The notes beneath the pieces are model-generated. The model did not search any database and was not told where the DNA came from. It saw nothing but the letters and a program-made list of their open reading frames with translations. The translations under genes and the position numbers were made by a program. From positions 64,001 through 128,000 of IMG/VR virus record IMGVR_UViG_3300037067_015585: a stretch of 64,000 nt of DNA; one strand, 5' to 3'. Shown here in pieces: positions 6,055-15,547 of the stretch (positions are counted from its first letter, which is position 1; every line of letters begins with the position of its first letter). This DNA comes from a virus (lineage: Duplodnaviria > Caudoviricetes).

Positions 6055-8103
6055 TTAAAATGCACAAACTAACTTGATCTCGGCTATGCTAGTAATAGAT
6101 CCACCATCGATATTAGCTGATATACTTAACCTGTAGTATCTATAACTCGTGTGATTTCCGAATGTAAAATATGGAGTCCAAGCATAATTCCCAGGAGCAG
6201 CTATATTACTTCTAAAATCTAATGGTACAAAATTAGAATTATCGTTAGAACCATATAATGCGAAATCTTTCGGGAAGCCGGTATAGGTAGCTTCTTGTAA
6301 TGCGTATCTCATTACAACGGCACCATAAGGACCAAAATCGTATTGTATCCAATGTGAAGATCCTGAACCGCTTACCCACGCAGCATTAGTTTGGTCGAAT
6401 GCTCTCCACGCTGGTCCGATAACGGTGGTTAAGCTGCATCCAATTCTATCAAGCATATTGTTGCCCATGTTTTGGGCATTTGCACATATAAACTGTGATC
6501 CGTTCCAATAACTTAAGTAATTGTCGCCAGGAGACGAATAATGCTCCATTGATGTCGATCCAGGCACAACTGTCGCACCAGCACCGAGTGCTATTTGCGC
6601 CACTATATTCATAGTTAGACTATCATAGTTCATCTCACCATCAGAAGGATTGCCGTCGTTTCCAATGATAGAAGAAGCACCAGGCAAGCCAGAATTCTTA
6701 CACAAAGCAAGAATTTCACCAGCGTGAGCAAAATACCTTGTTGAAGTTGTTGTCGATTCGCTATCTGCTGTAACTGCATAAGGCGATGGTGTAGTGTAAG
6801 ATGTCATTGCAGCTGTGCATGTTACAGTCGGCATCGGAGACATTGAAGGTGATTGTGATATTGCTTGCGATGGCGATAATGAAAAATGTGGCGACAGTGA
6901 TGGCGAACGCGATGGCGATGGCGACAATGATGGTGAGCGCGATGGCGATGGCGACAATGATCGCGACAACGACGGAGATAACGATATTGATGGTGATAAT
7001 GATATTGATGGCGATAGTGACGGCGATAGCGATGGCGACATTGATACCGATGGAGATATTGATACCGACGTCGATGGATAAGGTTCAGGAATAACAACAG
7101 GTGGCTCAGGTGATGGATATACCTTGCAATCTTCTATGAATTCTCCAAAATAAGTCAACTCTCTTGGGCATGTTGCAATAGCACTAAACCACATCTGTGC
7201 CACTACTGTATCTGTGTCATCGACGCCTTTAATTAGCCACAACCGCTGTGTCCCCCTTGGGTGGCCGCTAACATCAACAGATCCAGATGGTGAGAATCTA
7301 CCATAATAAACACCATTGCAGCCTGAGCAGCAGAGATCTCTACAATACAATTCAGTAGCAACGATACTAGATGAATCACTTAGCCACTCTAGGGTATATG
7401 GAACATCAGATCTAACAAACGGCGTTTTGTATCCAGAAGCACGCAAATACTGATAGCCAGGATTTGCTAAAGTAACAGTCAGCTTCTCAATATAAGTTGG
7501 TACAAATGGGTTATTATTGCCAAATTGTACATCTTGTGTGAGATACTCGCCCAGTGTGATAGTTGTCCCTGACGACCCAAGGACAAGACCACCACTCCAT
7601 ATGTCTCCATTTATCGGTATGTTGTTTCCAGAATATGTTAATGTGTGTGTATACCAAACAGCATACTGTGTAGTGAAAATCGTGTGATCTAGATCAACAT
7701 TAAACGGTTGTGAAATCCATTGATTAGTTTCAAGATTTGTGACAGTGATTGGATATGTAGTGGCAGCACTACTTAAAAAAGCACTATAATGATCAATATT
7801 TGGCCATCTACAAATGCGTAATAATGCCAACACAGAATTCAACGTATCTGCGTCATAAGCTACCGATATGTTATCCTGATTTAGTGATTGCTGTTCTCTC
7901 GCTATCCTTGACACTACGCCTTGTTTATCAGTGGTTAATAGACCGCCTACTGTAACATTACCCCACATGTTGATAAACGGTGTACCTGGAATCAATCCGG
8001 CATTCACAAAGCCAGTTAACATATATCTATTATCGAATGATATAGTATACTGTTTTATTGGAGTCGTTGTATTCGATGGTGAATTTGATGCCACAAATGC
8101 CAT
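6055..8103 (-). CDS. Virion-associated protein with a Ser/Pro mucin-like linker and a C-terminal discoidin (F5/8 type C)-like domain carrying one inserted domain
   Basis: Start likely MAFVASN at 8103 (TAATG overlap). AWRAFD...W...WIQYDF...PKDFALYGSND...YRYYRL...IAEIK discoidin pattern. Confidence 0.75.
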   Translation of the reverse strand: MAFVASNSPSNTTTPIKQYTISFDNRYMLTGFVNAGLIPGTPFINMWGNVTVGGLLTTDKQGVVSRIAREQQSLNQDNISVAYDADTLNSVLALLRICRWPNIDHYSAFLSSAATTYPITVTNLETNQWISQPFNVDLDHTIFTTQYAVWYTHTLTYSGNNIPINGDIWSGGLVLGSSGTTITLGEYLTQDVQFGNNNPFVPTYIEKLTVTLANPGYQYLRASGYKTPFVRSDVPYTLEWLSDSSSIVATELYCRDLCCSGCNGVYYGRFSPSGSVDVSGHPRGTQRLWLIKGVDDTDTVVAQMWFSAIATCPRELTYFGEFIEDCKVYPSPEPPVVIPEPYPSTSVSISPSVSMSPSLSPSLSPSISLSPSISLSPSLSRSLSPSPSRSPSLSPSPSRSPSLSPHFSLSPSQAISQSPSMSPMPTVTCTAAMTSYTTPSPYAVTADSESTTTSTRYFAHAGEILALCKNSGLPGASSIIGNDGNPSDGEMNYDSLTMNIVAQIALGAGATVVPGSTSMEHYSSPGDNYLSYWNGSQFICANAQNMGNNMLDRIGCSLTTVIGPAWRAFDQTNAAWVSGSGSSHWIQYDFGPYGAVVMRYALQEATYTGFPKDFALYGSNDNSNFVPLDFRSNIAAPGNYAWTPYFTFGNHTSYRYYRLSISANIDGGSITSIAEIKLVCAF
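6826..7075 (-). repeat. Low-complexity Ser-Pro repeat (SPSLSPSISLSPS...)
   Basis: Degenerate gatggcga/gacggcga tandem units encoding S-x-S-P repeats. Confidence 0.9.
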
Positions 8104-11100
8104 TATGATCCGCCTTGCAATACAGTAAACCAACAATAATATGGTGGTGTCGTTTGATAGCTGGCATTATCGGTTGCAACTATAGTGTAAGTGTGTAAAC
8201 CGGCAGCACGCTTACCAATATTAAAACTGAAGTCTACACCACCGATGTTTGTGTTAATTGTCGGACCAGTTGCGACTGCAACACTAACACCATCAATCCA
8301 CAATGATATAGCATAAACGCCTCTCCAATCATGTGCATTGCAGGTCAATAAGAGGTCTTGACTAGAATACAAAGTAGTTTGCGTTTGCCCTGCTGTCTTG
8401 AATTGTGCTGTTGTTCTTTCAATCGTATTATATTGAGTTATAACAACATTGCGAATCGTAGCATATGTGCTAGCAGTGATAACGCAATCTGTGGTTGATG
8501 CCGATATTGGCATCGCCAATTCACCATTTACAGCCGTAACGTATATTCTATAATAGCGATATAGAACACCATTTTTAAATGTAAGCCATTTTGACCAAGT
8601 GTTTACGCTAGGGGCATCGACATTAACCCTTGTATCGAGTGTAACCCATATATTATTGTCGTTCGATCCTTGAAATAGAAAATCTCTTGGGAAACCGGTA
8701 TCGCTATTATAGTTCTGCTCATTTATAACTGCACCGTTTACGACAGTCATACCACTATAATTCTGCTCTTGTATGGCATACTTATTGATCACTTTTGGTA
8801 GCGCGCTACCAAAATCATATTCAATGTACCATGGTGGTATAGCTACTGCACTTATCCATCTGTCACGCTCATTAAGATTCGTCCTATTAAACGCCTTCCA
8901 TGCTGAGTAAGTTACAGCGCGTGAAATTGAATAATATTCACTATTTGCACTAACAACATTTGGTGCTGGTGTATTGTCTGACGTCATTATCGCTGTACAA
9001 GTGGTTGTGCCAGGATTGTCAGCTCCATCAATCGATAAACAAACATATTTAATCTCCGCTACGCTTGCAACGCCACCTTCAGAACTGCCGCTAGCAGAAC
9101 CACTACCAATAAATTCAGTTATATTTAATCTATAATAACGATATTCTGTTCCGTTAATAAATGTGAAATATTGAGTCCAAGCATAATCGCCAGGAGCACG
9201 CACACCTATTCTTAAATCTAATGTTGTCCAATTTGTTTCGTCATTAGAACCGCACAAATTAAAATCTACCGGAAAGCCTACATCATTTGCCTCTTGTATG
9301 GCATATTTATTTATAACAACACCAACATTAAAATCATATTGTATCCAATGTATAGATCCTGGTCCACTTATCCATGCATTGTCTGTTCGATCAAAGGCGT
9401 ACCATGCTGGATTGAAATGATAAGAATTTTTGCATCCGACTGTAGAAATCGCCTTATTCCCCATCTTGTCGGCGTCATCACATTGAAATGATGTGCCGTC
9501 CCAATAACTTAAATAATACTCGATACCCGGCCTCATAACATCGAGCGTATTAATCATGTTATTGCCCATGCTTGCGGCCGTCACACATACAAACTGCGAT
9601 CCATCCCAATAACTTAAATAATGTGTTACACCTGGTTTTGATACTGTAATTGTGTTAATCATATTATTGCCAACACTGTCGGCAGTCACACATACAAATT
9701 TCGATCCGTCCCAATAACTCAAATAATGAGTGTCACCAGGTCTTGTTATAGTAATACCATCGATCATATTATTACCAAGATCTCTGGCATTCCCACATAT
9801 AAACTGTGATCCGTTCCAGTAGCTCAAATAATTATCACCAGGTGTAGTCCAATCCCCAGGTTTAACCCACGTATATGTAGCAGTTGGACCCAAAACTATC
9901 TGTGCAAACTTTAGACATGTTGCCGGATCATTTCTCATATCACCATCAGTGTCAGGGACAATATTTCCTGAACCAGGTAATCCAGAATTTATGCATATTC
10001 TAGTGATATTACCAGCGTAATCATAATATGCCGTAACTGGCGGATTTGGAGTATAGTATGCGCATGTTGATGCTGAGACTGAACCAGTAGATCCAAGTGC
10101 GATTTTAGCAATCTTATCTAACGTAGCACTATCACAACGCATTTGTCCACTTGACGTATTAATAGAACTTGCACCAGGAAGACCTGAATTAGCACATAGA
10201 GCTGTAATGGCACTAGGGTTATTGTATGTTAAACTGACTGGTGGCTCAGGTGTATAATATGCTTCTGTCACATTTGTAACGGATACGGTAGAGCCAAGTG
10301 ATATGAAAGCGGCTTTATTTATTGTCTCTGTATCATAATTCATCTGGCCATGTATACTATTGATTGACGAAGCACCAGGCAAACCAGAATTCTTACATAA
10401 AATTGTAATAGCATCGGGAGTCGAATATGATCTCAAATCTGGTGGCGAAGCAAAATTCTCTTCTGTTGCAGATATAACGGTCGCACCAGCACCTAAAGCT
10501 ATCACAGCTACTTCATTTAATGTTGTTGAATCATAATTCATCTGACCTTCGGACGTTTGAATTAACCATGTACCATTTATATCAGATCCGGCACATAAAT
10601 CTGTTACAGCCCCAGGAGTATAGAACCATTTTTCTAACCATGTGATAGCTTCACTGTCTGCACTAACAACATATGGCAATGGCGTAGTATTAGACGTCAT
10701 CTTGGCAGTACAAGCAGTAGTTGATGGATTATCTGCGCCATCGATTGAAAGATTGATAAGACTAATCTCACCAATAATAGTGCATGGATTGGGAAATATA
10801 TCGTTGATCGTAATTTCCGGTTGAGTGACATCCGACACTATTGTAGTGGGCTCTACATAAGTTGGTGCCTTTGTAGTAGTAGCAACTACCGTTGGTGTAA
10901 CCGGCATTGCACTTGTATCTGTACCCGGCAGCGGAAGACCATTGCCTGCAGCAACACCAGTAGCACCAGGAGTCTTATTGAACCGTATTGGCAATATTTC
11001 AGCCGCTGCGATTCTGTCTTTTATTATTCTGAAAACACATGATTGGTTATAGCAGCCTGGCGTATATGGGTGTACTGGTATGATTGCATCAATATTAACA

Positions 11101-11633
11101 AATACAAGACTGTCACGACTTGCTACAGTCGCTGCATATGTCGTCTCTGTTAAATCGTTGGTTGCTAAATTCCGATTATAAACTAAATAATTATTTAATG
11201 GGAAAATATTCTGTGCTGCGGCTACATCTTTAACAGTCGAAACGTTTGCTGGATTTACAAGATCTCGCTCAATTTTAATATCTGAAATATTGTATGCTTT
11301 AGTTGGTGAATTGTCTATTAAATTCTTACTCTGCAGATATTTTAACATCTGAGTAAGATCTTTATTATCAACTATGCCATCTCCATTCACATCGACATAT
11401 GGCTGATTTGATGGTCTGTTTTTGGGTAATGATCCAGTACCATGTGTAGTAATGTAGTTGGAAATAGTATTGTAGTCATTTATATCGACGACTCCATCAC
11501 CCAGTACATCAAATCTATTCCCTGGGTTCTGCCATCTAGATACACCTAATATTGTATTGCTTAGACTAAAGCTACTCACCAATGGAGTAACTTTAATTAC
11601 TTCGACATATGTTGTTAATCCTATTTGCGTCAT
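8103..11633 (-). CDS. Large multidomain virion/adhesin protein: dockerin-like EF-hand pair, two discoidin-like domains (the first with nested inserts) and a C-terminal Ig-like domain
   Basis: DVLGDGVVDINDY and DVNGDGIVDNKDL repeats; two WIQYDF/YIEYDF...YRYYR discoidin units, each preceded by SIDGADNP.TT.CTA.MTS; C-terminal HTYTIVATDN. Confidence 0.8.
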   Translation of the reverse strand: MTQIGLTTYVEVIKVTPLVSSFSLSNTILGVSRWQNPGNRFDVLGDGVVDINDYNTISNYITTHGTGSLPKNRPSNQPYVDVNGDGIVDNKDLTQMLKYLQSKNLIDNSPTKAYNISDIKIERDLVNPANVSTVKDVAAAQNIFPLNNYLVYNRNLATNDLTETTYAATVASRDSLVFVNIDAIIPVHPYTPGCYNQSCVFRIIKDRIAAAEILPIRFNKTPGATGVAAGNGLPLPGTDTSAMPVTPTVVATTTKAPTYVEPTTIVSDVTQPEITINDIFPNPCTIIGEISLINLSIDGADNPSTTACTAKMTSNTTPLPYVVSADSEAITWLEKWFYTPGAVTDLCAGSDINGTWLIQTSEGQMNYDSTTLNEVAVIALGAGATVISATEENFASPPDLRSYSTPDAITILCKNSGLPGASSINSIHGQMNYDTETINKAAFISLGSTVSVTNVTEAYYTPEPPVSLTYNNPSAITALCANSGLPGASSINTSSGQMRCDSATLDKIAKIALGSTGSVSASTCAYYTPNPPVTAYYDYAGNITRICINSGLPGSGNIVPDTDGDMRNDPATCLKFAQIVLGPTATYTWVKPGDWTTPGDNYLSYWNGSQFICGNARDLGNNMIDGITITRPGDTHYLSYWDGSKFVCVTADSVGNNMINTITVSKPGVTHYLSYWDGSQFVCVTAASMGNNMINTLDVMRPGIEYYLSYWDGTSFQCDDADKMGNKAISTVGCKNSYHFNPAWYAFDRTDNAWISGPGSIHWIQYDFNVGVVINKYAIQEANDVGFPVDFNLCGSNDETNWTTLDLRIGVRAPGDYAWTQYFTFINGTEYRYYRLNITEFIGSGSASGSSEGGVASVAEIKYVCLSIDGADNPGTTTCTAIMTSDNTPAPNVVSANSEYYSISRAVTYSAWKAFNRTNLNERDRWISAVAIPPWYIEYDFGSALPKVINKYAIQEQNYSGMTVVNGAVINEQNYNSDTGFPRDFLFQGSNDNNIWVTLDTRVNVDAPSVNTWSKWLTFKNGVLYRYYRIYVTAVNGELAMPISASTTDCVITASTYATIRNVVITQYNTIERTTAQFKTAGQTQTTLYSSQDLLLTCNAHDWRGVYAISLWIDGVSVAVATGPTINTNIGGVDFSFNIGKRAAGLHTYTIVATDNASYQTTPPYYCWFTVLQGGS

Positions 11634-11639
11634 AGTGGC

Positions 11640-12506
11640 TCATGATATAGTAAGGACAAAATCGCCGCTGCACCGCGTTGTTCCGTCTGGTAGAGTCGCA
11701 GTAACTCTGTATTGGTAAGTACCTTTCAAAAACTTAGATGTATCGACTATATATCGAAACACATATGGATTAGAACGATACGATCCTTGTCGTAAGCCAT
11801 TTGTCATTGGTTCGTCTTTAAAAAGTATTTCGTTATTTACGGTTGATATTGTAATTGTCCCAACTAACTGCGGTAAAACTGGTGCAACCAAATTAAAATC
11901 ATAATCATACAATGGCAATGGCATAATACCAATTTCTAATGGTCTAATTTCTGGTTGACTAAATTTCTGATCAAGCGGTTCAAATCCAAGTCTAATAGCA
12001 GTTAGTGAATCTTGACCGTCCCAATCATCAGCATAAACCCAAAACTTCCCGCACGTCTGAAGCGCTAGACCTTCATACTCAGAATTATCTAAATCAGGAC
12101 ATCCACTACTATCTGTAATGCATCCAGATCCGCCTAATTCTAGTAAACATGGATTTGTAGGAATATAACTCCAAACATCAAAATAAACATCTGGAACAGA
12201 TGCGTCAGCAGGCACATCTAATAATAATCTATATTCACCTGGTACAATTGCACCCTCTTGTCCTTCAGTCCCGCACACACCAGGCTCTGTATTGGTCCTG
12301 ACATATTCTACTGGGGAAGGATAATTTGGATCACACGGGCTGACTACAGCAAATTGTGCTATTAGGTTAGATGGAATTATTTGTGTTTTATAAATTTCAA
12401 CCTTACGAATTGCATATGGTGCAGTCGCTATACCACCACGCATAAATCGCATGTCAAGTTGGACTACATTACCGCGTCTTGCAGATATTCGTTGATATAT
12501 TGGCAT
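11640..12506 (-). CDS. Hypothetical structural protein (beta-rich, Cys-containing)
   Basis: Likely start MPIYQR at 12506 with GAGGTG SD (12513-12518) and a CAAAGATA motif upstream; the tracked upstream extension overlaps another ORF. Confidence 0.7.
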   Translation of the reverse strand: MPIYQRISARRGNVVQLDMRFMRGGIATAPYAIRKVEIYKTQIIPSNLIAQFAVVSPCDPNYPSPVEYVRTNTEPGVCGTEGQEGAIVPGEYRLLLDVPADASVPDVYFDVWSYIPTNPCLLELGGSGCITDSSGCPDLDNSEYEGLALQTCGKFWVYADDWDGQDSLTAIRLGFEPLDQKFSQPEIRPLEIGIMPLPLYDYDFNLVAPVLPQLVGTITISTVNNEILFKDEPMTNGLRQGSYRSNPYVFRYIVDTSKFLKGTYQYRVTATLPDGTTRCSGDFVLTIS

Positions 12507-12549
12507 ACAATTCACCTCAATTATAATATCTTTGCCAGGGTAAAAGACG

Positions 12550-12780
12550 TTATCGATATGGTGAATTAGGCATTGATCCTGATGACTTACGGTTACGCTC
12601 TTCAGCAACTTTTTCGAGCTTTCTAGACCACCATGCACGTTCCTCGGCGGTCATGACATTCTGCTCGAAAATCGTAAGTTCCCCGGTACCACCAACTCCG
12701 CATCTTAGCATGAACTGCTGTTCCATCAGCATGTTCCACTCTTTCTCACATTGCTCGTGAGACTTGCGGGCGAAAAAAGG
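12550..12780 (-). CDS. gp51-like / tail-chaperone extension ORF, possibly reached by frameshift from the gp26-like gene
   Basis: MTAEERAWWSRKLEKVAEE helix resembles the small ORF that follows gp26-like genes; overlaps the upstream gene in the +1 frame. Confidence 0.55.
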   Translation of the reverse strand, partial: PFFARKSHEQCEKEWNMLMEQQFMLRCGVGGTGELTIFEQNVMTAEERAWWSRKLEKVAEERNRKSSGSMPNSPYR

Positions 12781-13765
12781 ACTCGGTGATCGGCAGCATA
12801 GCACGGTGCGTTTCGCCGCAACCAGCACATTGCATTTCAATCATCGTTTCGATGCTCGGAGTATGTTCAGATAACCACTCTCTAATAACCGCAAGATCAG
12901 TAGATTGCATCTTGTTTACTATGCTTTTGATCTTGAATCTATCAGTTACGCCCATGATATCAACTATGACTGTCTCGATATTTTGTGTTACAATATCGTC
13001 AAGTGCAACCTCATCATGGCTATGATCCACTTGTTGCATTACACGATCTCTCGGTTTAATTCTAGCTCTTGATGAACCACCCAATATATTTTGGGCTTTT
13101 TTTGTTCTTTGGATGCTGCTAGCATCACGAACACGCAGGAATCTTATAGATGCCGATATATCTCGCCCGGTTGTCTTTGTGAGATATGGGAGATTAATTT
13201 TGAATGGCTCAGAACCCAATGATTCGTCTGCCCATATTATTGTGTTGACCAATTCATTTAAGTCGATGGTGTGAGTTGCAGTCTGCCCACACTGTTGATT
13301 GGGGCATGTTGTCGCGAATTCATATTCATTTCCGTGTGTGATACCGCGAAGATAGTACAATAGATATATCTGATCTCCGACTAACATATCTTGGATATCA
13401 AATCCATCTGGAAAACGACAACATTCTTTAAGCATATAATCAATCGACTGACCAGTTTGTGCCAGTCGAGCGGTAGCTAAAATTTTATCGATCTTAGCCG
13501 ACCAAGCTCTAACAGAAACAACACCGGATGTCCAACCATAATATAATCCTTTACTAGGTAATGTGGTCTCCTCCCACGGGATTAACTGCTCCGGCGAAGC
13601 TCTAGAAATAATATCAACAATATCAACATCTGATGTAGCGTTACCAACTAATTTCGCAATTTCAGAGTTTGGTACTTCATCAGTTTTTTTAATTGTTTTA
13701 TCTGTGTTCTGTGGTTTCTGCGATTTGATTTCGTCAGTCAAAGAAACCTCTTCTATATCAGCCAT
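12746..13765 (-). CDS. T4 gp26-like baseplate hub assembly chaperone
   Basis: LPSKGLYY, GDQIYLLYYLRGITHG, two CxxC-type knuckles (CPNQQC, CAGC) and C-terminal SFFRP; adjacent to tube genes. Confidence 0.75.
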   Translation of the reverse strand: MADIEEVSLTDEIKSQKPQNTDKTIKKTDEVPNSEIAKLVGNATSDVDIVDIISRASPEQLIPWEETTLPSKGLYYGWTSGVVSVRAWSAKIDKILATARLAQTGQSIDYMLKECCRFPDGFDIQDMLVGDQIYLLYYLRGITHGNEYEFATTCPNQQCGQTATHTIDLNELVNTIIWADESLGSEPFKINLPYLTKTTGRDISASIRFLRVRDASSIQRTKKAQNILGGSSRARIKPRDRVMQQVDHSHDEVALDDIVTQNIETVIVDIMGVTDRFKIKSIVNKMQSTDLAVIREWLSEHTPSIETMIEMQCAGCGETHRAMLPITESFFRPQVSRAM

Positions 13766-13835: not shown

Positions 13836-14348
13836 TTAATTGTTCTCAGCCCAGTCATATGAAACAGTAACTTCGATAACTTTAACGTCAGTATTAGTAT
13901 ATGTCAAATCGCCTTCTTTAATTGTACTAGGCCAACTACCATGCAATGTCCAAACTGTGCTGGTCTCCCAATCTAAAGTATATATCGATATTTGCGAATC
14001 TTTTTTGTAATCACTTGGACTTGCTAAACCACCAGTGTCCGTCCAAACAGTTTTCCGCCAGCCTTTTACTACATCTGATGTTTTGCCACTACCAAGCATA
14101 GTATCATAAAATGTGACTTTTATGTCTTCCCATGTCACCATACTAGCATATTTATAGACTAAAGAGGCACCATCAACAGTTTCTTTTCCAACACTAAAAG
14201 TAGGAACAGTTGCATCTTTAGCAAGTATTGTATTCATACTTGCGGTATCTTCAAATAAGTTGTCGATAGTCCATGTATAATTATAGACTGGCTTTATAGC
14301 AGATGCCGCAACACCACCACCAACACCACCTACAATGAACCCTGGTAT
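13836..14348 (-). CDS. Tail tube-fold protein 3 (gp19 family), non-canonical ATA start
   Basis: The frame extends 37 codons upstream of the tracked ATG to ATA-CCA-GGG-TTC ((M)PGF), with AAAGGAG 7 nt upstream. WPSTIKEGDLTY...IEVTVSYD gp19 motif. Confidence 0.8.
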   Translation of the reverse strand: MPGFIVGGVGGGVAASAIKPVYNYTWTIDNLFEDTASMNTILAKDATVPTFSVGKETVDGASLVYKYASMVTWEDIKVTFYDTMLGSGKTSDVVKGWRKTVWTDTGGLASPSDYKKDSQISIYTLDWETSTVWTLHGSWPSTIKEGDLTYTNTDVKVIEVTVSYDWAENN

Positions 14349-14363
14349 GGTATGTCTCCTTTA

Positions 14364-14882
14364 TTAACTGCCTAGATTTTCCTCTGTAGCTTTGTCCATC
14401 TCAAGCGTAAAAGTAATTTCGCCAAGCTTTGATGATGTATAGTCTAATTCGTCTGGTGTCACTTTCGATGGCCAGCAGCCATACATTGTATATTTATATG
14501 TCGAAGTATTATTACCATCGACTAATTCTAATGTACATGTAGCCTTTGGATCGCCTACTAATGTTGATGCTTTGATATTGAGTATGCCAGTTGACCACCA
14601 CTGATAAATCTTGAAAGCAACATCAGCACTACCGATCGCATGATAAAAACTTATATCAATCGGTAGCCATTTTTGTTTACCAGGAAAACAAATGACATCT
14701 TGAATGTGATGCATTTGTCCTCTCTCAAATTCAACTTTTGGTCTTCCAGACTTATGGGCATATATCAATATGTCTTTTAATGGATCTAAAGTCTCAAATT
14801 TCCAACGATGCTGCCTTGCCATCTCTATATTGGCTCTAGGCTGATCGCTCGAACTACTATCGCTAATATTGAATCCAGGCAA
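14364..14882 (-). CDS. Tail tube-fold protein 2 (gp19 family), TTG start
   Basis: PGKQKWLPIDISFY and GCWPSKVTPDELDY...ITFTLEMD motifs. Confidence 0.85.
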   Translation of the reverse strand: MPGFNISDSSSSDQPRANIEMARQHRWKFETLDPLKDILIYAHKSGRPKVEFERGQMHHIQDVICFPGKQKWLPIDISFYHAIGSADVAFKIYQWWSTGILNIKASTLVGDPKATCTLELVDGNNTSTYKYTMYGCWPSKVTPDELDYTSSKLGEITFTLEMDKATEENLGS

Positions 14883-14989
14883 GAATGTATCCCTAATCAG
14901 CTAAACCACATCTACCTACTCCAATTTAGGTTTGATCAGGTAGATGAGACTGTACCGATAGGTGATTACAATAATGATGGAAGTATAGA

Positions 14990-15493
14990 TTATGACCTTA
15001 AAGCACGATCATATCGCAATGTAGCTTCAATCGTTGCAATATCGGTAGACGTATAATCGACATCACCCCAATTGACTTCTTTGGGCCAAGCATTCCACAT
15101 TGTCCATGTCTCTGTAGCAGCTCCGGTCGTATCGACCATTGTTAACGCTGCTTGCTGCTTGTATGATGACGGTAGATTGACATTAGCTGTTGTGAGATCT
15201 ACAACAGTCGCCAGCCAATCATAAATATTCGCTGACACATCAAATGTCTGTTCAACATCATACCATTTCATGCTAATCGGTTCCCAAGTTTGCTTACCAG
15301 CGAAGTAAGCAACCTCTTGGTCGTGATGCATTTCTGGTTCTGCGAACTTGAAATTTGGGCGAGATGTAGATTGCAACACCAATAATGATGCTGAATCAAA
15401 AGTGTTCAGAATCGTAAAAATCCAGCGATGCTTTCTACGTGTCTCTAAAGTGGCTGACGGGCCAGATCCACCATTTATATTAAATCCAGGCAT
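14990..15493 (-). CDS. Major tail tube protein (T4 gp19 family)
   Basis: AGKQTWEPISMKWYD and AWPKEVNWGDVDY...IEATLRYDRA; strong AAAGGAGG SD; immediately after the sheath gene. Confidence 0.9.
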   Translation of the reverse strand: MPGFNINGGSGPSATLETRRKHRWIFTILNTFDSASLLVLQSTSRPNFKFAEPEMHHDQEVAYFAGKQTWEPISMKWYDVEQTFDVSANIYDWLATVVDLTTANVNLPSSYKQQAALTMVDTTGAATETWTMWNAWPKEVNWGDVDYTSTDIATIEATLRYDRALRS

Positions 15494-15547
15494 GAAAGCC
15501 TCCTTTATTTCTTAAGTAAATTTGTTTGTCGTACTATACCAATCATG

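Follow-up and report, generated by a model that had tools for sequence, protein, structure and literature searches.

The tail tube of bacteriophage T4 consists of gp19 (PF06841) and is accompanied by the tube-fold junction proteins gp48 and gp54 and the terminator gp3, such tube-fold proteins being required in very different copy numbers. Extracellular contractile injection systems (eCIS) encode small tube paralogues of similar size (Afp1/Afp5/Afp7 and Pvc1/Pvc5), one forming the bulk of the tube and the others single adaptor rings. In phage lambda, the G/GT -1 frameshift is a translational device for the stoichiometry of tail components from adjacent genes. In Escherichia coli, near-cognate start codons placed behind a Shine-Dalgarno (SD) sequence lower expression or make it conditional, the AUU of infC serving autoregulation by initiation factor 3 (IF3) and the AUU of pcnB limiting expression. 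Naturally varying non-canonical starts are reported to change expression in bacteria, in a study of start-codon polymorphism as an expression dial (Nat Microbiol 2024, PMC11445065), and initiation has been measured for all 64 codons (bioRxiv 10.1101/063800). Near-cognate initiation, tube paralogues and the translational setting of tail-protein ratios are each already known. The present work concerns three adjacent gp19-type tail-tube paralogues (genes 1 to 3) of an uncultured huge myophage, the third of which very probably starts at an ATA codon and belongs to a family in which near-cognate starts (ATT, ATA or ACG) are common. They lie on the minus strand of a 64,000-nucleotide (nt) stretch, hereafter the window, which comprises bases 64001-128000 of a 234,376-bp contig (single IMG/VR virus record IMGVR_UViG_3300037067_015585; 40.5% G+C; estimated to be about 64% complete).

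All three proteins exceed the PF06841 (T4 gp19) cut-off of 28.2 bits, match the tail-tube family phrog_4542 (E 6e-23 to 1e-16) and are the only gp19-type matches in the whole contig. As originally predicted, they begin with (M)PGF and are 167-172 amino acids (aa) long (167, 172 and 170 aa as measured); pairs of them are 25-38% identical. The AlphaFold model of gene 3, the one product modelled (mean predicted local distance difference test score, pLDDT, 74.5), has the beta-sandwich fold of tube proteins, and Foldseek matched it to the tube of Klebsiella phage KP1 (9ev2_T1, E = 1.1e-8, template modelling (TM) score 0.67) and to T4 gp19 (5w5f_A, E = 1.2e-8; 5iv5 also matched). Profiles and fold likewise match the tube chains of Pvc1, Afp1, AlgoCIS and the Anabaena CIS.

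The likeness to T4 extends to gene order, as the tube genes follow the sheath and precede a T4-type baseplate hub gene (PF12322), the complete minus-strand order being gp15-like sheath stabiliser, sheath, three tube genes and hub. T4 gp48 and gp54, however, have 320-364 aa and extra domains, whereas all three proteins here have about 170 aa and a PGF N-terminus; genes 2 and 3 show neither gp48/gp54-type sequence membership nor the extra domains. The match to gp54 (9ufn_C) was weak, at E = 0.03 with the gene-1 profile and 0.9 with the gene-2 profile, the gene-3 profile giving none. We know of no near-cognate starts in the T4 tube or junction genes. Compared with the eCIS, the genes studied here belong to a phage, and all three are adjacent and downstream of the sheath.

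Relatives were taken from IMG/VR and Joint Genome Institute (JGI) metagenomes as 96 related loci, several of them one contig entered twice, and all start-codon counts below refer to unique sequences. The sheath followed by an array of tube paralogues is present in nearly all loci with enough flank, and the order of gp15-like gene, sheath, three tube genes and hub is kept in 90. Relatives with a gene 1 at least 70% identical to that of the window form the close clade, which is distinguished below from a distant clade. A tblastn search of 50,697 phage records with genes 3 and 1 returned only distant tube proteins (at most 33% identity) and no cultured clade member; Ralstonia phage RsoM2USA was considered as an isolated relative and set aside, having a single match and a different layout.

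The open-reading-frame (ORF) track gives gene 3 as a 133-aa protein (13836-14237). As the original prediction had noted, this is 37 codons short of ATA-CCA-GGG-TTC at 14348, which stands 7 nt after AAAGGAG (14356-14362). The sequence there reads AGG AGA CAT ACC ATA CCA GGG TTC, the frame is open back to TAA-TAA at 14361-14366, four codons upstream of the ATA, and between that double stop and codon 38 (14237) there is no in-frame ATG, GTG or TTG. The codon preceding P-G-F aligns with the orthologue start in more than 45 related contigs, in which it is ATG in most, ATT in L005, L025 and L028, TTG in L008, ACG in L007, L014, L015, L020 and L021, and ATA in L088. The last of these (genome G004), whose protein is 68% identical, has the same GGAGACATACC-ATA context as the window. 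Codons 2-37 also behave as coding sequence: in the comparison with L088, 16 of them are identical, 10 differ synonymously and 10 non-synonymously, against 51, 40 and 42 in the rest of the gene, and across ten relatives their synonymous to non-synonymous ratio matches that of the remainder. They contain the invariant residues KPVYNYTW and LFE. A start at Met38 would drop the conserved KPVYNYTW strand (residues 25-30 of the AlphaFold model); that methionine is not conserved among relatives, and the calculated SD duplex energy is -1.0 kcal/mol for its upstream region as compared with -8.7 kcal/mol for that of the ATA. Given the conserved codons 2-37, the aligned starts of the relatives, the context shared with L088 and an unconserved Met38 that lacks an SD, we conclude with high confidence from the comparative sequence data that translation of gene 3 starts at the ATA, so that the position proposed in the original prediction appears to be genuine.

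The situation is not peculiar to this gene. Tube genes in 11 other relatives likewise lack a canonical in-frame start for their conserved N-terminus, and in many of the near-cognate cases there is no canonical in-frame codon upstream while the next one lies 20-119 codons downstream. For genes 1 and 2 the predicted elements, an SD and ATG (15493) for the former and AGGGA and TTG (14882) for the latter, were correct in every sequence detail; the TTG of gene 2 is its first in-frame start and aligns with the start codon of the orthologues.

Near-cognate starts are concentrated in the tube genes. Among 52 unique tube-gene starts in the close clade, 18 are ATT, ATA or ACG and 17 are ATG, while the sheath starts with ATG in all 23 unique relatives and the hub in all 22 (18 of 18 for close-clade sheath and hub sequences, the window's own counted). 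The difference between tube and sheath/hub genes in ATG versus non-ATG starts gives a Fisher p of 4e-7, a value that overstates independence since the sequences are related. Close-clade gene 1 starts with ATG (9), ATT (4), TTG (3) or GTG (1), gene 2 with GTG (7), TTG (5), ATT (3), ATG (2) or ACG (1), and gene 3, where the near-cognate share is highest (10 of 17), with ATG (6), ACG (5), ATT (3), ATA (2) or TTG (1). The distant-clade counts are ATG 39, ATT 4 and GTG 4 for gene 1, ATG 34, ATT 2, TTG 2 and GTG 1 for gene 2, and ATG 32 for gene 3.

The background frequency of such starts was estimated with relatives fetched whole or nearly so (G001, 269 kb; G003, 388 kb and 99% complete; G004, 24 kb) and an orthologue-anchored comparison of start-aligned codons in three genomes. 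This comparison replaced an earlier screen for alignments reaching upstream of the first canonical start, in which many hits were false positives, since overlapping upstream genes and conserved SD regions also produce such alignments. Outside the tube array, about 4 of some 444 testable genes (about 1%) have a near-cognate start and no alternative, as compared with 4 of the 9 tube genes in the same three genomes (p = 5e-6 against the 1% background).

The non-tube cases are worth recording individually. At G000:C1:145187-145192 on the minus strand (locus L100, outside the window), TAAATAAGGAGC is followed by ATA-ATT-ATC-AGA-TTT-CAT, making this the second likely near-cognate start of the contig, at ATC/ATT (145187/145190); the orthologues in G001 and G003 both have GTG opposite the ATC, and no canonical codon occurs until a TTG 7-8 codons downstream, which is unconserved and lacks an SD. 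A P-loop protein (GLPKSGKS) at G001:C1:195054-195606 (plus strand) has ATT behind TAGGAG where three orthologues have ATG. A protein of about 88 aa, encoded at G001:C1:98202-98472 (minus) and G003:C1:233287-233557 (minus), lacks a canonical start in both genomes; it begins near a conserved ACG that follows the TAA of the upstream gene by two codons. A link between near-cognate starts and the proline at codon 2 was considered and abandoned, other near-cognate genes being found without Pro there.

The codons themselves turn over quickly. Start codons differ between sister phages on a concatenated-protein tree, although only branch lengths of 0.004-0.05 lie between them: L001 has ATG/ATG/ATG for genes 1 to 3 and its sister L002 ATT/ATG/ATG. 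Further examples from the tree are L007 (ATG/GTG/ACG), L014 (TTG/GTG/ACG) and L015 (ATT/TTG/ACG), as well as L021 (ATT/ATT/ACG) and L025 (GTG/ATT/ATT); L088 has ATG/ACG/ATA. The coding sequences of L001 and L002 are nearly equal while the whole region upstream of gene 1 differs, and therefore upstream modules are exchanged; the pattern indicates recombination with a breakpoint at the start codon. The sheath-tube intergenic regions of these two phages are unrelated, that of L002 being shared with L015 and L006. The descending series ATG, TTG, ATA that the original prediction had described for the window is not conserved. A monotonic descent occurs in only 7 of 41 unique complete triplets, which all belong to the close clade and include the window's own (7 of 15 close-clade triplets). 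Another 20 have equal codon classes throughout; gene 1 is weakest in 9 and strongest in the remaining 5, where gene 2 is weaker than gene 3.

SD strength varies along with the codon. Start positions were set by homology and not by the SD, so that the strength of the SD can be read independently of them. The SD of gene 1 is strong in about 90% of relatives (median -7.3 to -9 kcal/mol whatever the codon) and exceeds that of gene 2 in 36 of 41 contigs and that of gene 3 in 29 of 41, which fits gene 1 as the major subunit. When genes 2 and 3 start with ATG their median SD energies are -3.7 and -5.4 kcal/mol and about a third reach -6 kcal/mol or better; when they start with ATT, ATA or ACG the medians are -6.8 and -8.8 kcal/mol, and 83-90% reach that value. 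Over all tube genes, 21 of 24 near-cognate starts have an SD of -6 kcal/mol or better. This inverse relation implies that the codon alone does not set output, and it argues that the codon does affect output here. Measurements in E. coli put AUA, AUU, AUC and CUG at about 1-2% of AUG, and ACG at 0.1-1% (bioRxiv 10.1101/063800), so the codon can have a large effect.

The junction between genes 2 and 3 is tight, and its layout also follows the codon. The gene 2 stop and the gene 3 start are 15 nt apart in the window; among 10 relatives whose gene 3 start is near-cognate, 9 have a distance of 5-15 nt. The median gap is about 10 nt when the gene 3 codon is near-cognate but 1 nt when it is ATG, the two genes then often overlapping (gap -1). 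Two forms can be distinguished. In one, stop and start overlap or abut (gap -1 to +2 nt, often as TAATG), the codon is ATG and there is no SD; in the other, a spacer of about 10 nt separates them, the stop falls within or next to a strong SD, and the codon is near-cognate. Both forms place gene 3 so that ribosomes coming straight from gene 2 can translate it. A read-through product joining genes 2 and 3 was considered and rejected: the two share a frame in the window, but the stop is doubled there, and in relatives the genes overlap or lie in other frames.

Genes 1 and 2 are farther apart (60-176 nt in most contigs). All 15 close relatives inspected have a hairpin with ATAT-CAAAYYTA-AA some 45 nt upstream of gene 2; the CAAAYYTA motif lies inside the hairpin loop in the window, L005, L021 and L025, with differing stem sequences. 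Upstream of gene 1, most relatives have a GC-rich hairpin followed by TTCGTATA and CAT-CAAACATA. The motif CAAANATA occurs 16 times genome-wide between -90 and -10 of starts, where 3.4 occurrences are expected. These hairpin and motif modules may be terminator-promoter cassettes or an RNA element. As genes 1 and 2 are each preceded by their own hairpin and motif, gene 1 and genes 2-3 are probably separate transcription units with different motif variants. A consensus scan for intrinsic terminators between the tube genes found none, and the spacer between genes 1 and 2 folds modestly better than shuffled sequences (z = -2.1). The features of the locus are collected in Table 1.

Table 1. Coordinates of the tail-tube array and its flanking genes in the window.
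Feature	Position	Strand	Remarks
Tail sheath gene, 951 aa	15548..18403	-	PF04984, PF17482, phrog_23; ATG start
CAAATTTA, variant of the promoter-like motif CAAANATA	15517..15524	-	upstream of gene 1
SD AAAGGAGG of gene 1	15499..15506	-	duplex energy -11.6 kcal/mol
Tube paralogue 1, 167 aa	14990..15493	-	ATG at 15493; PF06841 33.4 bits
Hairpin (CATCTACCT ... AGGTAGATG) with CAAACCTA (14927-14934) in the loop	14909..14946	-	between genes 1 and 2
Weak SD AGGGA of gene 2	14890..14894	-	duplex energy -5.6 kcal/mol
Tube paralogue 2, 172 aa	14364..14882	-	TTG at 14882; PF06841 29.4 bits
Gene 2 stop TAA and second in-frame TAA, overlapping gene 3 SD AAAGGAG	14356..14366	-	
Putative ATA initiation codon of gene 3	14346..14348	-	aligned with orthologue starts
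Internal ATG (codon 38), ORF-track start of gene 3	14235..14237	-	no SD
Tube paralogue 3, 170 aa	13836..14348	-	ATA at 14348; PF06841 33.6 bits
Baseplate hub gene	12746..13765	-	T4_baseplate, PF12322; ATG start

On balance, these observations lead us to favor a combined tuning of initiation strength, in which gene 1 would be the major product, genes 2 and 3 would be made at a lower dose and the start codon would act as a labile, interchangeable dial. Under this scenario, ribosomes ending gene 2 at the TAA-TAA would meet the strong SD overlapping that stop and, using initiator tRNA, would start anew at the near-cognate AUA 7 nt farther on. Removal of the methionine would then give the gene 3 product the same PGF N-terminus as its paralogues. 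The output of each tube gene would be set by the whole initiation region together with transcription signals and not by the codon alone: high for gene 1, with its almost invariably strong SD, and lower and linked for genes 2 and 3, which would pair a good codon with an SD that is weak or missing, or else a poor codon with a strong SD. The codon would be the component that mutates and recombines quickly, the ATG > TTG > ATA order of the window being one of many settings. A lower dose of genes 2 and 3 would suit minor or junction rings. Gene 1 is probably the bulk tube subunit: its conservation is the highest among the paralogues (mean column identity 61%, versus 41-44% for genes 2 and 3), it directly follows the sheath and it has the strongest SD. 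By analogy genes 2 and 3, which lie between gene 1 and the hub gene, may form single-ring adaptors like T4 gp48/gp54 or Afp5/Pvc5. More tentatively, the tube paralogues of this clade could be regarded as a hotspot of near-cognate initiation in which codon and SD co-vary and turn over fast, selection holding the dose of each ring protein and the codon being the most mutable knob.

Several points weigh against this proposal. Gene 1, the presumed major subunit, starts with ATT in 8 unique contigs, and its SD there is no stronger than in the ATG variants. Going by the E. coli figures, output from such a codon would fall about 50-fold, which fits poorly with a major structural role. The discrepancy would disappear in a permissive host; otherwise these phages would make less gene 1 product. 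The roles suggested for genes 2 and 3 are read from position, weaker SD and lower conservation, and profile searches of PDB sequences with each paralogue, like the fold search with gene 3, returned generic tube proteins without separating the roles. The relatedness of the sequences means that the counts, as well as the Fisher tests, overstate independence, and the SD energies were computed with a generic ACCUCCUUA anti-SD tail, which may not be that of the host.

The main rival is near-neutral drift in a permissive host, which we consider unlikely. Near-cognate codons behind a strong SD would then work well and carry no stoichiometric meaning, and the tube genes would simply be where strong SDs or coupling make such codons tolerable. 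The tolerance of ATT by gene 1 would be expected under drift, as would the rapid codon flips between near-identical phages, the exchange of upstream modules between L001 and L002 and the background of near-cognate starts at 145187/145190, in the G001 P-loop gene (ATT) and in the small G001/G003 gene (ACG). Drift explains that background of about 1% but not the ATG-only sheath and hub genes, which lie in the same operon region and keep ATG in 45 of 45 unique relative sequences. Nor does it explain why genes 2 and 3 have weak SDs with ATG and strong ones with near-cognate codons, a compensatory pattern that implies the codon matters.

That the ratio between major tube and initiator rings is set by design through the start codon itself (ATG > TTG > ATA), as the original prediction held, now seems improbable. 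Part of that claim stood: the ATA appears to be a real start, the codon classes descend in the window and in six other close-clade triplets (L007, ATG/GTG/ACG, among them), and near-cognate codons are commonest in gene 3 of that clade. As a conserved determinant, however, codon identity fails on the 20 triplets of equal class, on the 9 in which gene 1 is weakest and on such cases as ATT/ATT/ACG in L021. The codons vary over ATG, GTG, TTG, ATT, ATA and ACG, so that the non-ATG starts are not conserved among orthologues, and ATG stands opposite position 14348 in 38 of 49 unique gene 3 sequences (32 of 32 in the distant clade), an outcome that had been named in advance as speaking against the claim. 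SD strength, moreover, runs inverse to codon strength. From these comparisons, the relatives already largely refute the claim as worded, while the idea behind it, translational control of subunit dose, is partly supported, in spirit if not to the letter.

A switch of the infC type, in which poor starts tie tube translation to low IF3 or to initiation altered by the phage and so delay tube synthesis until late, is very doubtful. In its favor, IF3 discriminates against AUU, AUA and ACG, as in E. coli infC, and the contig encodes an initiator-like tRNA with a non-standard anticodon stem. The conserved AUU of infC is, however, the sensor itself, while the non-AUG codon here is not conserved across orthologues and varies among six triplets, even between sister phages, offset by the SD. 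No IF3 gene (PF00707) was found in the 234-kb contig, about 64% complete, and the initiator-like tRNA is absent from G003 (99% complete), whose gene 3 still uses ACG. The tRNA in question is one of two adjacent genes with a CAT anticodon at G000:C1:202309-202383 and 202387-202461 (locus L101, outside the window). The first is initiator-like in having A11:U24, a mismatch at 1:72 and a TTCAAAT T-loop, but in its anticodon stem A-U, G-C and C-G take the place of the three G-C pairs of initiators. The second is similar either to an elongator Met tRNA or to a lysidine-type Ile2 tRNA, which reads AUA. An initiator-like tRNA as the general cause was set aside, BLAST of five relatives having found nothing; ARAGORN likewise detected none in G003 or in the part of G001 examined.

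Least credible of all is an artefact or decay, with the ATA a base-call error or inactivating mutation and the protein absent or starting at Met38, as gene callers faced with this single assembly would have it by choosing the ATG at 14237, since the same ATA context recurs in the independent, diverged contig L088, ATT or ACG occupies the codon in 8 other unique contigs, each with a well-spaced SD, and the frame is intact and under purifying selection, while Met38 is unconserved and without an SD and its use would remove a conserved strand.

Two further observations concern the neighboring tail module. A 96-codon ORF in a third frame (window 12550-12840, minus strand) runs from the 3' part of the hub gene into the 5' part of a 332-codon ORF (11640-12638, minus). 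Its C-terminal part (FEQN.MT.EERAWW) is conserved in relatives, and the first codons of the 332-codon ORF hold stops there, so the true start of the 332-codon gene is later and the 96-codon ORF is likely a small overlapping gene. Farther downstream, a 1176-aa tail-associated protein (window 8103-11633, minus) carries an N-terminal type I dockerin and an F5/8 type C (discoidin) domain. As dockerins are typical of cellulosome-producing Firmicutes, this domain may hint at the host or at the mode of attachment.

In its use of start codons the array differs from the described systems. Bacterial start-codon polymorphism concerns single loci, whereas here it involves a structural phage gene family with about 35% near-cognate starts across a clade, and the efficiency of the lambda frameshift is fixed and serves one gene pair, while initiation strength here is variable. 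A literature search on near-cognate or ATT starts in phage tail genes found nothing relevant, and we found no account of phage structural genes with AUU, AUA or ACG at a third of their starts, turnover between sisters and compensating SDs.

Standard gene callers truncate or miss these tube genes, shortening gene 3 by 37 codons and genes 2 and 3 of L088 by 119 and 63, so catalogues of huge phages carry systematically wrong N-termini for a core structural family. The array also provides a natural series of initiation regions for one protein, in which codon and SD trade off, as material for measuring how the two combine, and the same series could gauge how permissive the host, which is probably SD-dependent, is. 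If the tuning interpretation is true, these phages would show how the ratio between bulk tube and single-ring adaptor proteins is kept, and how fast it can be reset after recombination of the upstream module.

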